Assembly (NCBI GenBank): GCA_951406725.2
Contig: OX597837.1
Location: 19,530,001 to 19,594,000 of the forward strand
Reading direction: 5' to 3'
DNA length: 64,000 nt
DNA from: Octopus vulgaris
Taxonomy: Eukaryota
Shown: piece after piece, positions 11,595 through 64,000 of the stretch
Layout: each line of letters begins with the position of its first letter
How positions within the stretch are numbered: position 1 is the first letter of the stretch
The notes under the pieces: model-generated
The model's database searches: none
What the model was told of the DNA's origin: nothing
The model's input: only the letters and a program-made list of their open reading frames with translations
Program-made: the position numbers and the translations under genes

Positions 11595-12600
11595 TGTGGT
11601 CGAGACGACATATCGATTTCGCTGGTCCTTTAAATGGTTCTTACTACTTAGTGGTAGTTGATAGTTTCTCGTAGTGAACAGAAATTTGTAAGTGTAAAAA
11701 AACCAACTCCCTCAACTGTGATAACATTTTTACACGAATTGTTTGCAAGGCTTGGCATCCCAGATAAGATAGTGTCTGATAATGGAACGCAATTTGTGTC
11801 TAGCGAACTTGACAAAAAATTGTGAAACGTTCGCGGTAGAACATATAACTACGGCGCCATACTATCCCAGATCTAATGGACAGGCAGTACATTTTGTAGA
11901 TACTTTCAAAAGAGCACATAGAAAATTGAATAAGGAAGTCACGGATGGAGTAGCTCTACAAACATTTTTAAGAGTGTACCATGTGACAACAAATCCGAAT
12001 ACTCCAGCGGGGAGATCACCAGCAGAGCTGATGCTTGCAAGGAAAGTAAAATCAGTCTTTGATAAATTGCTACTTGGCAAGAAAAGAAAAAGTGCCAAGG
12101 AAGACATAGCAAAATTCTTTAAAGTGGGTGAAAATGTGAATACGAATGCATACAAGAATAGAGGGAAGATGGCGTAATTACCAAATGCATAGGTAAAATG
12201 ATGCATTGGATAAAATGTAGAAAATGCATACAAAAAAGACACAGAAACCAACTGAAAAAGAGATTCATGGAAAGCGAACCAAAGAAGGTGGGGGAACCGA
12301 TGGATGGGTTGTACAATATGTTCCAAGTACCTGGGGGAACCGATGGATGGGTTGTACAATATGTTCCAAGTACCTGGGGGAACCGATGGATGGGTTGTAC
12401 AATATGTTCCAAGTACCTGGGGGAACCGATGGATGGGTTGTACAATATGTTCCAAGTACCTGGGGGAACCGATGGATGGGTTGTACAATATGTTCCAAGT
12501 ACCAACGCCACTGCAGGTGATTGAACTCAGGTGTACAAGTGAGAGGGAAAGAAAACGTACAGAGTTCCTGAAAATGGATATCAAGCGCAAAATATATTAA
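11595..12600 (+). mobile_element. Decayed Ty3/Gypsy integrase region
   Basis: HIDFAGPLNGSYYLVVVDSFS, LHELFARLGIPDKIVSDNGTQF, HITTAPYYPRSNGQAVHFVDTFKRA and TPAGRSPAELM; contains stops and frameshifts. Confidence 0.92.
12289..12503 (+). repeat. Perfect 43 bp minisatellite, 5 copies
   Basis: Unit TGGGGGAACCGATGGATGGGTTGTACAATATGTTCCAAGTACC starting at 12289, 12332, 12375, 12418 and 12461; no spacers. Confidence 0.97.
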
Positions 12601-13722: not shown

Positions 13723-14546
13723 AACGGGGAGGTACCCAATTTAACCAAAAACGCTATCTGTGGGACAAGCCCGTTGTAGTTCAAGCTTCCGCCGTTAGAA
13801 ACCATTAATGCGACCCACGGGCATCAGTCTGCCGACCGGCGTCGTCGGCTATAGTCCTAGTGCCCCGTGGTGCGTCTTTGTTTTACAGCGCTTCCCTCTG
13901 TTCGTCGATTTTTGTGATGACTGAAACGAAAGAACGTCGTGCTTCCGCGAAATTCTGTTTTCTGTTGGGGAAAACGGCCGCCGAAACAGTTCTCATGCTT
14001 CAAGTAACTTACAATAATGTTGCCATTAGCAAAACACAAGTTTACGAGTGGTTTCCACACTTAAAGAATGGTCATTTGTTGCTTGAAGACCAACCTCGTT
14101 CAGGGCGACCGTCGCCGAACAGTTGACGAACTTGTTAACATGACTGGTGTGTCCTGAAGCTCCGGCCAACGAATTTTGACGAGGAGTTCCGAATGAAATG
14201 AGTTGCAGCAAAATTTCTTCTTCACTTGCTCACGTAAGATCAGAAGCAGTCACGACCGAATGCGTGAACTGAAAAGAAGTTTGGACCTGGACATTTCTTT
14301 GAAGGTTGTCACTGGTGACGAAAGCTGATGCTATGGAATTTGTAGATGTGGAAGAGGTGAAGAAAAGGAAAAGACGAAAGTATTACAAGATATCACTTCG
14401 CTAGAGTTTCAGCACCGCTTCAAGCGGTGGAAAACGCGTCTAGACCGATGCATTGTTTCAAATCGAGAATACAAGTGCAGACATGAAAAAGTAAGTGAAT
14501 AAAATAATATTGCAAAATTCTGGTTTCGATTGGGTAACCCCTCGTA
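13723..14546 (+). mobile_element. Internally deleted mariner-family transposon
   Basis: N-terminal HTH (KFCFLLGKTAAETVLML...VYEWF...EDQPRSGRP), VVTGDES and C-terminal RWKTRLDRCIVSNREY; imperfect TIRs AACGGGGAGGTACCCAAT / ATTGGGTAACCCCTCGTA. Confidence 0.9.
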
Positions 14547-21388: not shown

Positions 21389-21906
21389 TAGGTACCGCAC
21401 GCTAGGAGGTACTTTGCAGTCAAAACTACTAAAATAAACAAATTGTACCGAATGCAAAACTTCAAAGCGAGTCATTTAAAAACAGAATTTAGTTACATAT
21501 CACCTGTGATTTCGCAATCAATGCAGAACATGTACTATATGCTCTTCAGTGCAACGAACTCAAGACATATAAGAAAAAAACACAACATCACATACCCGAC
21601 AACCAACCGTAGAATTCGCCGCAGCATGTACGAATGTTTATAGATATGTAAAGATAAACATTCGTACATGCTGCGGCGAATTCTACGGCTGGTTGTCGGG
21701 TATGTGATGTTGTGATTTTTCTTATATGTCTTGAGTTCGTTGCACTGAAGAGCATAGAATGCATATTCTGCATTGATTGCGAAATCACAGGTGATATGTA
21801 ACTAAATTCTGTTTTTAAATGACTCGCTTTGAAGTTTTGCATTCGGTACAACTTGTTTATTTTAGTAGTTTTGACTGCAAAAGTCCCTCCTAGCGTGCGG
21901 TACCTA
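21389..21906. mobile_element. Near-perfect foldback element (about 253 bp arms, 12 nt loop)
   Basis: Ends TAGGTACCGCACGCTAGGAGG and CCTCCTAGCGTGCGGTACCTA; loop 21642-21653; mirrored ORFs 21443(+) and 21851(-) give nearly identical peptides. Confidence 0.95.
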
Positions 21907-39894: not shown

Positions 39895-41080
39895 CAAGCA
39901 TGATCGGAAGCTGATTGTTGAACTTCCGATAGTCAGATGCGACCTACACACGATAGCAGTTGTTCGACATAAACCAGTAAGTCAGTAATGCCCGGACACT
40001 GGATGAGTACGTGCAGAAGAATTTTGTCGCTTAACCAGAATCTCGTGCAGGCACGTCCGACGCCACTTCCGTGCATGAAGAACTTATCTTGAGCTGGTAA
40101 TGCTCCGCAGTAGAACTACCAGGGCAGAAATATCTAGAAATTATTCATGGGCCCTGAGCCGAAAGTCCTCCAAGACAGGGCAGCCTGTTGATTTTCAGTG
40201 ACGACCAGATTCTCCACGAAAAGGTCATCGCACTTGCCCAGCACTAAACCTCAATAAAATGCCAAAGTGGAACTTTACCGACCACTTTTCCAGACTGTCA
40301 GAGAGCTGTGAGCACCTGACGGCATTCTAGGTACCAGGTCTACGTGAGCACCTGACGGCATTCTAGGTACCAGGTCTACGTGAGCACCTGACGGCATTCT
40401 AGGTACCAGGTCTACGTGAGCACCTGACGGCATTCTAGGTACCAGGTCTACGTGAGCACCTGACGGCATTCTAGGTACCAGGTCTACGTGAGCACCTGAC
40501 GGCATTCTAGGTACCAGGTCTACGTTTGATTCAAGAATGCAGCTCAAAGAGACAAACCGCGGAAAAGTGAGTCTAACAAACGGTGATCGTATTTGTTCAG
40601 CATCAAGGATACACTTCAGGTGCCGCAGCCTCAACGCATGTCTGTACATCCGTTGCCAGCGCATGCCCATCCTCCATTTAGTGGGTGTTGACAACAAATC
40701 GGCGGAAGAGCCTGGTCAGACGTGATCTGGAGTAAGGTACGACGGTCAGCTGGTAATATATGACGAAAGCGATGAAAGCATTCGCCACTTCTTCCCGACC
40801 TTTCAGTAATGGCATTCTCTTGGTCAATTTCTAGATGAAATAGGCTACTCTGTTCATCACTTGGTCTCAGTTCGTATCTATATGCTGATCTGGACCAGAC
40901 CAAACCAAACTAGTGCAATTTTAATCGTCCGTCTAGCTGTTGGACGAAATGACCTACTCATTGACATTTCTCTGTTGATTTTCCATCCTTTCGCCGCCTC
41001 GCCGTCCGTTAGGGCTGCGCTGACCATCTCAATCTGCTTGGTGTCCGACCTAGCGACGGTGAAGTCAACCGCATTTTCTT
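39895..41080 (-). mobile_element. Decayed Tx1/L1-clade LINE, 3' ORF2 region
   Basis: NAVDFTV...AAKGWKINREMS (decayed YADD...ATGAKINxxKS), LLKGREEVANAFIAFVIYYQLTVVP, ICCQHPLNGG and C-terminal LHVLIQCP zinc-knuckle remnant. Confidence 0.78.
40308..40525 (+). repeat. Perfect 36 bp minisatellite, 6 copies
   Basis: Unit GTGAGCACCTGACGGCATTCTAGGTACCAGGTCTAC at 40308, 40344, 40380, 40416, 40452 and 40488; no spacers. Confidence 0.97.
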
Positions 41081-41417: not shown

Positions 41418-41644
41418 TTAATCATTTCTACAATAAGCACAAGGTCTGAAATTTGAGAGAGGGGGATAATCGATTACATTGACCCCAGTGTTTCACTGGT
41501 ACTTAATTTATCGACCCCGAAAGGATTAAAGGCAAAGCTGACCTCGGTGGAATTTGAACTCAGAATATAACGACGGGCGAAATACCACGAAGCATTTCGT
41601 CCAGCCTGCTGACGAATTTCCGAGCTTGCCACAACAACAACAAC

Positions 41645-41697
<53 letters not shown>

Positions 41698-41698
<1 letters not shown>

Positions 41699-44640
41699 CA
41701 CTGAACAAAAAGTGTGCCGACGAGGCTCATATGGATGCAAAGATCAACTCTTAATCAATAACATGATCCTTGAGAACTGTCATGACAAACGCAGAAATCT
41801 CAGTTCTGCATGGATTGATTATAAAATGGCCTTCGACAGCATATCGCATTCATGGATCTTGAAATCGCTGGACATCTTCAAGATTTCTCTTGGGATTTCA
41901 AGTTTCCTGAAGCATAACTTGTTAATGTGGAATACGAAACACCAATTGTACCACTCTGTTTGAGTACTGACCACAAAAAATATTAATGTCAACTACGTTA
42001 TTTTCCAAGGTGACGCACTTTCACCTTTAATTTTCTACATAGTCCTAATACCCCTTACAAAAGAACAGGGTATGGATATAAAATTGGCGACCAGAAAATA
42101 AGTCATCTATTTTATATGGATGACTTAAAACTCTATGGCAAAGGCGATAATAAGCTTGAAGGACTACTACGTACTGTAAAATTTGGTCTTGATAAATATG
42201 CGGAGGCCACTTTCCAGAAAGGAAAACTGAAAACCTCACATTCAGTGGTGTTGGATGTTGACACTATCATAAAAGAATTCGAGCAGGAACAAACTTACAA
42301 ACATCTCGGAATAAATGAGGGCTCTGGCATTCAACATGCAAGTATGAACGGGATCAGGAAGCAGTGTTCCAGGAGAATTGAAGCAGTCTTAAAATCCGAG
42401 TTAAATGCACGTGTTAGATATAAATTCCTTGGCAGTTTCTGTTGTTATTTACAGTTTCAATGTGTTGAACTGGAATATGAGCGAAGTAAAGAAGATTGAC
42501 CGGAAAACCTGTAAGCTGCTGACTTGCAATAAGATGCACCACCCAAAGGCAGATGCAGATCGTCTTTACCTATCCAGAGCTCAGAGAGGTCAAGACTTGA
42601 TCCAGTTTGAAATCTCCTGCAAAAGCACCACAACTGGACTGGAAAAATATCTTGAAACATTTAACGACTGGATGCTAAAACTGTTTGAAAACCATGAAAG
42701 ATGTAAGAAGCTTCATTCTGTTATGAAGGAGAGCAAAAAAATTTTTCAAGTGAGTTTATGTATAATACCCCTGTTGGAGGCTAATGTAGTTTCGCACCTC
42801 TCCTAGAAAAGTGCATTTTTTTGAAAAAAAAATTTCAGATTCCTACGTTTTAGATGTCGGAAATTACGAATATGCAAAAAAAAAAAAGTATTAATTCCCC
42901 CCTCCCACTTCTTCTCCACCAATTAAAATTTTTGATTTTGTTTACTTTAAAGAGATCGTAGCGAAATGCAAATCGAAATTAAATGCAGGCAAAAACATTA
43001 AAGTGAAACGAATTTGCGTTTTGCTTGTGTTTGCCTTAAATAATCATAAATAATAATTTAATGTAAATTAAATTAAATATACACCATTTTATGAGAAACA
43101 AACAATGTTTAATAATTAATGTTATGAATTTCACCCCTCCCCCAATTTTAAATTTTGAACTTTTTCATCCATTTATTTATTTATCTGTTTGTCTATTTAT
43201 CCCTGTTCGTTTATTCATAAAATATATTTGTCAACCAAAAGTAGCGGTCCCATAGAAGAGGACGCGTTACTGTTATTTTTAGCCCCAGGAAGACATTCCT
43301 ATCTATCTCTTTGTAACATAATATCTATAAGCTTATTGAATTTAAAATTTTGAAAACGTGGTTTCTTGCATATTCAGAATCTCCGTCATCTAAAAACATA
43401 AGGGGAAAAATTTTTCGAAAATGTTCAAAATTTTAAAGGAGACGGGGCAGGGGTTAATTTTTTTTTGCAAATTCGTGATGTTCGACATCTAAAACACTGG
43501 AATCCGAAAAAAAGTTTTTCAAAACAATGCATTTTTCAAGGAGAGGTAGGAAACTGCATTATCCCCCACCCCAGACAGCCTGAGGGAAGTGTAGCAACTG
43601 TAATTTCAAAGAAGGTGAAACCAATAGCAAAGCAAAATGTATTTGAACGATTGGCTGATAGGTGAGAACAAAAACCTCTTTATGGCAAATATGTGGCCTG
43701 TAGCAAACAAGCAGATGTAGATCAGAAGCATACCCATCAGTGGCTACGGAGCTCAGGTTTAATGCAGAGAGTGAAGACTTTATCTTGGCTGTCCAAGATC
43801 AGAGCTTATTGACACGGAACTATCAAGCCAAAAATGGTGTAGACCCAAAGTGCCGACACTACAACGATGGGATAAAAACAGTACACCACCTAATCTTTGG
43901 ATGTAAGGTTTTAGCACCTGTAGAGTACAAATCAAAACATGACAGAGTTGGCCAATATCTACATTGGATAATGTGACGGCTTTATAAAATCAAGACTGCT
44001 AACAAATGGTATAAGCACCACCCTGAGGCTGTAACTGAGGGAGAAAATGTAACTATTCTTTGGGACTTCCCTGTACGTATATATCGGACCACCAAGGAAA
44101 ACAAACCAGATATTATTGTGAAAGACAAAAGCGATAAAGTCTGTTTATTGATTGACATGAGCATACATTGCGACCATAATATCTTGGCAAAAGAATTTGA
44201 TAAGCTCAGAAAATAAAGACTTGCTAATCGAAATCGAAAAAAATGTGGCATATCAAGACGGTTACAATACCACTGATTATAGGAGCACTTGGAATGATAA
44301 AAAAAGGATGTGAAAATTATCTAAGAATGATCCCTGCTAACAGATATCATTCTTAGATAATTAACATTCATGCAGGAAGTGCAAAAGTTTGTCTTTACTG
44401 GTACGTCACACGTATTGATAAGAGCATTGTCGCTGTGAATTTTCTTTACTTTTCCCTCTTTATTTCATTTGTTTACTTTTCTACTTTTTATTTTTTCCTT
44501 TTTCTCTATCACATGACTCTATAAATGAACAATCTGGTGTGCTTGTTTTAATGGCCTACCAATGTATACTGTACGTTTCTCTACCCTAGGTATGAGGAAG
44601 ATACTCGGCAAGAAATAGAAACAGAATTGAAAGAAGATGC
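41698..44640 (+). mobile_element. 5'-truncated R4/Dong-clade non-LTR retrotransposon (RT + restriction-like endonuclease) in (TAA)n
   Basis: GCKDQLLIN, AWIDYKMAFDSISHSW, HLFYMDDLKLYG, HPKADADRLYL, ILAVQDQSLLTRNY, KCRH...TVHHLIFGC, HDRV, ILWDF, KPDIIV...LLIDMSI; bounded by (AAT)n on both sides; stops and frameshifts. Confidence 0.92.
42775..43568. mobile_element. Non-autonomous DNA transposon (about 125 bp imperfect TIRs) nested in the Dong LINE
   Basis: TGGAGGCTAATGTAGTTTCGCACCTCTCCT versus AGGAGAGGTAGGAAACTGCATTATCCCCCA; flanks CCCCTGT / CCCCAGA; LINE reading frame (IIP|RQPEGS) rejoins when the insert is removed. Confidence 0.85.
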
Positions 44641-62323: not shown

Positions 62324-62592
62324 TATAATAATATAAGAAGAAGAAGAATGATAATAATATAATTGATATATATATATAAATATATACATATAATATATGT
62401 GTGTATTTATACACACACACACGCACACACGCACACACACACACACACGCACACACATATATGTATATATATATATATATAGTAATGCACAAAAATGTGA
62501 GACAGGGTGGGAAAAAATGTGCTCGAATATTATTAAATCTGCATTTGATTCTCAATCAAAACTGTCCGACGAACATTCTAATATAATTCATC

Positions 62593-62642
<50 letters not shown>

Positions 62643-62666
62643 TTAATGATGATGATGATGATGATG

Positions 62667-62706
<40 letters not shown>

Positions 62707-62726
62707 TGATGATGATGATGATGATG

Positions 62727-62808
<82 letters not shown>

Positions 62809-62845
62809 TAATAATAATAATAAGAAGAAGAAGAATGATAATAAA
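61920..62845 (+). repeat. Two-copy tandem duplication, unit about 480 bp
   Basis: Identical unique core GCACAAAAATGTGAGACAGGGTGGG...TTCATCTAAT at about 62009 and 62487, each followed by the same (AAT)(GAT)(AAT)(GAT)(AAT)(AAG) pattern. Confidence 0.93.
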
Positions 62846-63467
62846 ACTAATTGATTGTTGTGTATGCTTATAAATGTAAATATGTATGTACATTATGTGT
62901 AAATGTGTGTGTATTTATTTATTTTTATATTTATATTTATATATAACTTAACCTTATGTACTTTCCAAAATCTCTGACGAACCCAAGAGAAACACACAAT
63001 TTCATTTACTTATTACTTCAGTCTGCTGGAGGAATAAAGGTAGAATGAGGTATTTTTGCTCCTTGACTGAAACAGCTGTAAGATATTTTCCCAATTTGTA
63101 TTCCTGTATGTTATATTTTAATAATTACTGGTATCTTTATATATTTTATATGTAAAGTATATGTTATACATGTATGTATATTCTTGTAATTGTCATTTTA
63201 GAGAATAAATAAATAAATTGACATAATATAATGACTAAAAGTTGATGAACCGCCTATTGATCCCCTCCATTTTCTTATTGTTCTATAAATTAATGGTAAA
63301 AATATCTCTTTACCTTCACCCATTTAGTACACTCGGTAATGTAATTGCAATGCAATAAAAATCACTTGTGTATTAATAATTGGGTATTCTACCAACAGTA
63401 TATTGGATAGATATTATCCCTTAGTGGGTTGGATTCACAACCTCTAGCTTTCTTGGAATATATATAT

Positions 63468-63525
63468 ATAGCAAAAACTGTCTGATGAACGGCAACGAGA
63501 AACTCAGAGTAACAGATTTTGTTAT
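63468..63525 (+). ncRNA. Minimal type I hammerhead ribozyme motif
   Basis: CTGATGA 63482-63488; stem II CG-GCAA-CG; GAAA 63499-63502; stem III ACTC/GAGT; GUA cleavage triplet 63509-63511; stem I ATAGCAAAAACTGT / ACAGATTTTGTTAT (14 positions, one mismatch, one G-U). Confidence 0.75.
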
Positions 63526-63533
63526 GCAAATAC

Positions 63534-63583
<50 letters not shown>

Positions 63584-63893
63584 TTATATGTGTATATAGA
63601 TGTATATATATATATCAAAGTATATATATTTTTATATGTATATATATATATATGTGTGTGTGTGTATTTGTCTGTGTGTGTCTGTATTTGTATCCCTATC
63701 ATCGCTTGATAACCGATGTTGCTGTGTTTACGTCACCGTAACTTAGCCGTTTAGCCAAACGCAACGATGGAATAAGTACTAGGCGTACAGAGAATAAATC
63801 CTGGGGTCGATTTCTTCAACTAAAGGTGGTGCTCCAGCATGTCCGCAACCACATTACCGAAACAAGTAAACCAATAAAAAACTGACACATTAA

Positions 63894-63923
63894 CCCCGTG
63901 CAACGCCGGGTATCTCAACCAGT
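63894..63923 (+). mobile_element. Isolated Helitron-like 3' terminus
   Basis: Hairpin CCCG-TGCAACGC-CGGG followed 8 nt later by CCAG|T (decayed CTAG); similar to 30754-30783. Confidence 0.45.
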
Positions 63924-63933
63924 ATATACATAT

Positions 63934-64000
<67 letters not shown>

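Follow-up and report, generated by a model that had tools for sequence, protein, structure and literature searches.

A hammerhead motif in Octopus vulgaris as a probable clipped remnant of the end repeat of a young Hydra-clade Penelope-like element

Introduction

Among Penelope-like elements (PLEs), the Hydra clade is defined in its published description by the protein motifs RWK, DKT, CxCX5C, CxxC and CxH and by the absence of CCHH, and (TA)n insertion and canonical hammerheads are noted for it (PMC8557442). The same source states that the role of PLE hammerheads is unclear. For other metazoan PLE hammerheads low activity and dependence on dimers have been measured, and the pair G10.1-C11.1 is described as highly conserved, though not universal, in these minimal hammerhead ribozymes, or min-HHRs (PMC4209133). 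The report on PAc from the green anole, in which cleavage is found to be dispensable in vitro for one element, describes two internal start sites that define a tail and uncleaved RNA as the main template; the PAc hammerhead cuts only with protein, core mutants still insert, and downstream sequence on the ORF side is needed for initiation (PMC11167929). An octopus repeat annotation gives 31 recently active Penelope-like families, which may include the one described here (PMC13282606). In a literature search that had Repbase and Dfam outside its scope, no paper was found on the family described here or on a pile-up of 5' ends at stem I.

The window analysed here is a stretch of 64,000 nt of O. 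vulgaris DNA (contig OX597837.1, positions 19,530,001 to 19,594,000), to which all coordinates below refer. An earlier note had recognised a near-intact solo hammerhead ribozyme at 63468-63525, between TA tracts, and had proposed either a very small non-autonomous element or a self-cleavage site retained in a host transcript. With high probability the motif is instead what is left, 55 bases long and truncated on either side, of the end repeat that carries the hammerhead in a young Hydra-clade PLE; it is likely inert and a side product made when the element was copied into a TA microsatellite. The locus is of little weight by itself, being one among thousands of clipped ends. The family from which it comes is a new one of a known kind, a Hydra-type PLE with a hammerhead; it is recent, at least 33 of its copies have the complete frame, and its hammerhead varies naturally at position 4 (U or C) and at 11.1 (A, G, U or C), with copy numbers at hand for the variants.

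Results

The hammerhead motif

The motif lies on the + strand. Its catalytic core opens with CUGAUGA (C3-A9, 63482-63488) and is followed by the segment 63489-63498, composed of A10.1 (63489), a 2-bp stem II, CG/CG, with a GCAA loop (CG-GCAA-CG, 63490-63497) and A11.1 (63498). The core GAA (G12-A13-A14, 63499-63501), the palindromic stem III ACUC-A-GAGU (63502-63510) and A17 (63511) come next, and established hammerhead chemistry predicts cleavage after A17 in GUA, between 63511 and 63512. The sequence thus bears out the core, stem II and stem III at the positions given in the earlier note, and CUGANGA, GAAA and UH, which a type I hammerhead core requires, are found at 63482-63488, 63499-63502 and 63510-63511, respectively. 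Positions in the family are counted here from core C3 as 0, and the predicted cut falls between +29 and +30.

Stem I is open-ended and closes both sides of the core. As first drawn, with 14 positions (63468-63481 and 63512-63525), it is paired in 13 of them, and the pairing stands; the element origin of the two outermost A-U pairs does not, since the element supplies only 63469-63523 and these pairs use letters of the flanking TA. The element-derived strands (63470-63481 on the 5' side, 63512-63523 on the 3' side) pair in 11 of 12 positions with one A.A mismatch, and the parent version of the stem spans -17 to +45. At the end of the 3' strand the copy stops at +41, short of the usual +67 and +137 of the family. 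The 5' junction is formed by a (TA)n tract (63459-63468), likely part of the microsatellite target, and a (TA)22 tract (63537-63580) follows on the 3' side beyond a non-repeat spacer of 13 bases.

A strict hammerhead descriptor written for this analysis gave one match in the window and one in total across 500 block shuffles. The folding z-score of the motif was -2.84, 3 of 200 shuffles folding equally well. The search with hammerhead models suggested in the earlier note brought no match to such a family: Rfam gave none of any kind at the gathering score in the window, and the 22 matches at E<=10 in 62500-64000 included no hammerhead family. The pair G10.1-C11.1 is absent from the motif, which has A.A instead; as U.U is common in the published Hydra rows, this does not exclude membership among PLE hammerheads.

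Elsewhere in the window, a different complete hammerhead-like motif is present in two head-to-head copies at 21549 (- strand) and 21745 (+ strand), with CUGAAGA, a long stem II, a 5-bp stem III with a 2-nt loop and a stem I paired in 10 of 14 positions; the two probably stem from one inverted insertion by a different PLE or retrozyme family. At 62974 (+), 61678 (+), 37026 (+) and 35081 (-) there are further core-like words whose stems are poor or absent, which are decayed hammerheads or chance. Pieces of other transposons were recognised by a weak RVT_1 match below the cut-off (41613-41960) and by a match to a Mos1-type HTH (13809-14123), and two tandem arrays are perfect, with 100% matches (43 bp x 5 at 12289-12503 and 36 bp x 6.1 at 40308-40525).

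The parent element

All 55 bases of the segment 63469-63523 (+ strand) are identical to positions -13 to +41 of the 3' pseudo-LTR (pLTR) of a full-length Penelope-like element of 3,362 bp (locus L061). Full-length copies were reached through cores spaced about 3.36 kb apart, and the parent is a tandem unit of 3,362 bp with an ORF of 711 aa and a 3' UTR of about 1 kb. The hammerhead sits close to the end of the unit, inside the pLTR; the element is inserted at (TA)n and occurs in tandem and inverted copies. The unit is longer than the <3 kb usual for Hydra, which is a tendency and no strict criterion. With the C-terminal 300 aa as query, 131 ORF copies were scored among 26,391 candidates; all 131 are 98-100% identical over the query, and 33 of them keep the complete frame of 727 codons.

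The single ORF combines RT (YRDD at 344) with a C-terminal GIY-YIG domain (GVVY...YTG at 580-600), and it carries RWK at 37, DKT in place of DKG at 113, a CxCX5C linker at 562, CxxC at 667 and CxH at 695. CCHH is absent, and no cysteine lies within the GIY-YIG core (580-600). The linker reads C in 32 of 34 reads from loci L218-L247 and F in 2. A word GNKY occurs at residues 51-54, a word match only, the GxKF/Y motif of the N-terminus being given as not conserved in the description of Hydra. A Pfam search of the 711-aa protein found no family at E<=1, and a PDB sequence search with the ORF found nothing meaningful. Of 7,972 candidate homologs, 2,049 proteins passed E<=0.001; the top 120 are 43-58% identical and nearly all unnamed, and the second-best match carries PF01541. 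On its protein motifs, and by comparison by eye with published proteins, the parent element is assigned to the Hydra clade. Assignment to the Naiad PLEs, which have an N-terminal GIY-YIG domain and no canonical hammerhead, was ruled out, the endonuclease being C-terminal here and the hammerhead canonical in order.

The earlier note had seen no PLE ORF beside the motif, and this was confirmed: when the window, the preceding 10 kb and the following 8 kb were searched by tblastn, a single match of 37 aa (E 0.01) was all that emerged. About 7 kb before the window, an older relative matches the tail of the family (+65 to +135) at 77% in the left neighbour of the window (L217:2825-2897). A non-LTR retrozyme, made of tandem non-coding hammerhead units, was ruled out for the locus, where the motif is in single copy and no second family core occurs in the window or in the following 8 kb.

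The 5' end of the window copy (-13) falls inside the 5'-end pile-up of the family described below. Its 3' end at +41 is found in only 5 genomic copies, which carry unrelated 5' sides; in two of the five, the arm ending at +41 occupies the place of the short arm of a pair. Two origins fit this end: a start site that is seldom used, and a deletion between TA tracts that came later. Clipped at both ends, and lacking both normal 3' ends and the ORF-side sequence, the window copy is likely inert and a dead end.

Copy number and subfamilies

Copies of the motif were sought genome-wide, as the earlier note had suggested, and the lack of homologous copies that it had named as a refutation was not borne out: 3,891 exact matches were counted for a core pattern of 30 bases, three of them left free, against 0 for the reversed control. 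The flanks of other copies share further sequence on both sides, and a 22-mer from the 3' end of the family has 9,230 matches. The exact 35-mer including A.A at 10.1/11.1 occurs in 3,636 copies, and copies with a canonical core and U at 11.1 number only 31. The mismatch against which the earlier note had cautioned is thus no oddity of one copy; A/A is the state of the family and not decay.

In a sister subfamily position 4 is C (U4C, with the core CCGANGA; 1,582 exact matches to a 28-base pattern), and A10.1 faces a G, U or C at 11.1. Against the reference, three of the longer arms in this subfamily show 86-90% identity over 140-280 bases, and longer ones 74-84%; no full-length coding copy was located in the loci examined (L162-L191). 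A 140-base tree did not resolve the order of the CCG and CUG subfamilies, each of which lies about 1.2% from its own majority in samples picked by exact patterns. In copies with a CUG core and U at 11.1 the partner arm was readable in 14 of 30 loci, with C at position 4 in 8 and U in 6, which hints that many such copies are CpG-decayed CCG. Lower activity in vitro is reported for U4C, yet with viroid infectivity possible (PMC3088659).

Relatives keep a GNRA loop (GGAA or GCAA), and in older ones the arms of stem III are mostly kept while its centre base varies (A, C, G, U). Within the window, a local duplication with a spacing of 478 bp (62080 and 62558) holds in each copy AAAACTGTCCGACGAAC, which resembles the start of a CCG-type core and is preceded by a stretch resembling, by eye, an inverted tail of the octopus family; it is probably the stub of an older relative and is not among the blastn matches. 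By eye, the 3' flank of locus L028 bears on its other strand a further hammerhead-like motif with a CCGAAGA core, a long stem II and the same stem III, and U4C may thus recur in unrelated families.

Predicted folding and cleavage

The earlier note had held that stem III cannot fold within a monomer. Sterically this went too far, a 3-bp stem with a 3-nt loop being possible, but the hammerhead-compatible fold of a 62-mer monomer reaches -7.3 kcal/mol against -14.2 kcal/mol for a misfold in which the core is buried against stem III. When the fold of CUG copies was constrained, stem II did not form. Pairing of stem III is predicted to be intermolecular (duplex -7.4 kcal/mol), and in the cofold of the 62-mer the minimum free energy dimer is a double hammerhead, at -30.6 against -28.4 for two monomers. 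A double hammerhead is likewise predicted for the element-derived part alone and for the parent fragment -17 to +45; with longer parent fragments (-17 to +67 and -25 to +137) other pairings win and the lowest-energy dimer is no longer of this type. Folding and identity to the parent element together support the reading of the earlier note as a type I, Penelope-like hammerhead whose palindromic stem III favours the dimer.

A pair other than G-C at 10.1/11.1 lowers activity when combined with a 2-bp stem, as older mutagenesis indicated. Weak or protein-assisted cleavage by the parent motif would be slightly more probable than not, and meaningful cleavage at the window locus would be most unlikely.

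Insertion structure

For 107 core-bearing arms located within the initial 78 Mb of chromosome C1, the 3' end is the short site +67 in 55, +137 in 46 and elsewhere in 6; the short site is +67 followed by TA, the alignment giving +71 through TA overlap. One end of each type is present in 45 of 49 inverted pairs. An origin of the two arms of one insertion from different source copies was not supported, an A/T marker being concordant in 49/49 pairs. In 4 of 33 full-length junctions (L255, L259, L264 and L271) the start of the upstream repeat lies at +61 to +68, which coincides with the short 3' end, so that only the tail is duplicated there.

When arms were picked by their 3' ends, 91 of 100 spanned the predicted cut, which is what copying from an uncleaved template should give (PMC11167929). 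Only 2 of the 100 begin at +29/+30, and cleavage was rejected as the origin of the 5' ends.

We infer by analogy that the copying mechanism of the lizard element PAc applies to the octopus family. The GIY-YIG domain would nick the (TA)n target and the RT would start internally, at two sites, on RNA that is mostly uncleaved; such starts would yield short, often head-to-head copies, and the window copy would be a short product of this sort whose normal 3' end was in addition either lost or never made. For the hammerhead within the parent RNA, folding predicts an inactive monomer that can pair through stem III into a double hammerhead, its cleavage being likely weak or protein-assisted and not needed for copying.

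The pile-up of 5' ends at the base of stem I

Returning to the 100 arms picked by their 3' ends, 56 reach -11; of these, 32 end in the interval from -11 to -18 and 6 in that from -19 to -120, and 18 continue further. Genome-wide, 2,846 copies reach -11 and 1,590 reach -21, a drop of which mutation in the extra bases accounts for only a small part. On the second passage through the same sequence, in full-length copies, none of 28 stops in the pile-up zone (Fisher p = 3e-8 against 32/56, the samples being picked differently and the first mixing both subfamilies), and the pile-up is thus not a per-pass stall. These 28 passes are the 33 junctions minus 5 that stop before -11; one locus was without a junction and one was a duplicate. 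A splice acceptor, UUCUAG ending at -11, as in the Penelope of D. virilis, was rejected as the cause because copies keep bases upstream of the AG and no such joint is present among those listed.

At position -17 the base of the extended stem I of the parent coincides with the A of CCATTCT, a word that we take to fit the initiator consensus. The reading that we prefer, at close to but below an even chance, is that the pile-up marks a transcription start at -17 and run-off copying from the first pLTR. Early joining of two new strands, through the CTAG palindrome or through the complementarity of stem I, is a competitor only slightly less probable. In contigs from runs presumed to be RNA the whole element is covered in 4/4 runs, but contigs cannot show starts, ends or strand; likewise, no adapter is present at -17 in contigs from four runs of one study, contigs being uninformative on starts.

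A wider form of the preferred reading is offered tentatively and is rather less probable as a whole. RNA would start at the first base of stem I (-17, the initiator-like CCATTCT), and reverse transcription from +67 or +137 in the first pLTR would run off there and leave thousands of ribozyme-only stubs, so that the hammerhead would serve as a 5'-terminal structure and dimer signal and not as a cutter. A start at -17 with a structural hammerhead would explain the free spread of U4C and of unpaired 10.1/11.1, the kept palindrome of stem III and the two-armed insertions. If true, the genome would offer a set of core variants of natural origin, with their copy numbers, on which to test whether cleavage is obligatory for PLE hammerheads.

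Discussion

Alternative explanations for the window motif

The idea of a very small non-autonomous element, copying itself from its own short RNA like a SINE or a retrozyme, draws on short arms that are abundant and distinct, 76 of 100 sampled arms starting 18 bases or less upstream of the core or later, and on repeated mirror-image mini-insertions that share one junction. The same junctions, however, are present in the CUG and in the CCG subfamily, which fits repeated formation from long parents, and there is no retrozyme-like tandem array. The window copy, moreover, is without both normal 3' ends and without the downstream ORF-side sequence that PAc needs for initiation, and the five copies ending at +41, with five different 5' sides, are not a family. 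Being the clipped end of an autonomous high-copy element, with 55/55 identity to its parent, the locus refutes the solo element of the earlier note, and self-copying from a short RNA is improbable.

The same origin leaves the other proposal of that note, a self-cleavage site kept for function in a host transcript, with no support gained, and we consider it still more improbable. The core is indeed intact, and some family copies are probably read through, given the high depth of the family 3' end in contigs from presumed RNA runs; an intact core is nevertheless expected anyway in a copy with zero differences from its parent, hence with little time under selection, and a misfolded monomer is predicted. 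A Pfam scan of the 150 longest of 255 candidate frames, which is insensitive for short exons, recognised no host exon; three frames matched, two of them transposon pieces and one below the cut-off over a tandem repeat. Chance resemblance in AT-rich repeat DNA would agree with the lack of an Rfam hammerhead match and with the marginal stem II, but the single match in 500 shuffles, together with thousands of identical copies that sit in an end repeat of retroelements whose clade is known for hammerheads, reduces its probability almost to nothing. A clipped remnant of the PLE end repeat is the explanation retained.

Comparison with known systems

The octopus family resembles the Hydra clade as described by Craig et al. 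2021, Hydra-1_Obim included, in having RT together with a GIY-YIG domain at the C-terminus in one ORF, RWK, DKT, CxCX5C and no CCHH, in its (TA)n insertion and the hammerhead in the 3' pLTR, and in its 5'-truncated, tandem and inverted copies with an optional tail (PMC8557442). The Hydra hammerheads of supplement S2 of that paper include the same inner stem I (CUGU/ACAG) and an ACUC-N-GAGU stem III, often with U.U at 10.1/11.1; the 2-bp stem II of the present family is shorter than in any Hydra row of that supplement. Hydra-1_Obim, also from an octopus, has a different hammerhead sequence with a 7-bp stem II and a unit of 2.5 kb against 3.36 kb here, and its protein is homologous but clearly diverged, a separate family when compared by eye (PMC8557442). 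The tail measures about 70 nt, against the 30-40 bp described for PLE insertions (PMC8557442). Compared with the Hydra clade, the present family is very young and abundant.

With the metazoan PLE min-HHRs of Cervera and de la Pena 2014 the motif shares type I, a palindromic 15.2-16.2 with loop 3 and a predicted dimer, and these too are described as mostly scattered singly in truncated PLEs, some in close pairs on opposite strands (PMC4209133). In theirs helix II is long (7-8 bp in Schistosoma), helix I is short and G10.1-C11.1 is conserved (PMC4209133); in the present motif stem II has 2 bp, A.A stands in place of that pair, and stem I measures about 16 bp in the parent.

The metazoan non-LTR retrozymes of Li et al. 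2026 likewise have a type I hammerhead and derive from PLE pLTRs; they are described as tandem repeats with at least two hammerheads, and the window motif is a single clipped copy (10.64898/2026.07.22.740005).

The Poseidon element PAc from the green anole (Frangieh et al. 2024) is alike in that two sites, internal starts of reverse transcription in PAc and putatively so here, define an optional tail, and in its AT-rich targets; uncleaved RNA as the main template, shown for PAc, is inferred for the octopus family (PMC11167929). It belongs to another clade, and in the published account there is overlap between its hammerhead and the beginning of the ORF, inside which its start sites are placed (PMC11167929); both putative start sites of the octopus family lie upstream of the ORF. 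With its core variants and its sharp pile-up of 5' ends, the octopus family makes the role of the PLE hammerhead testable in a second clade.
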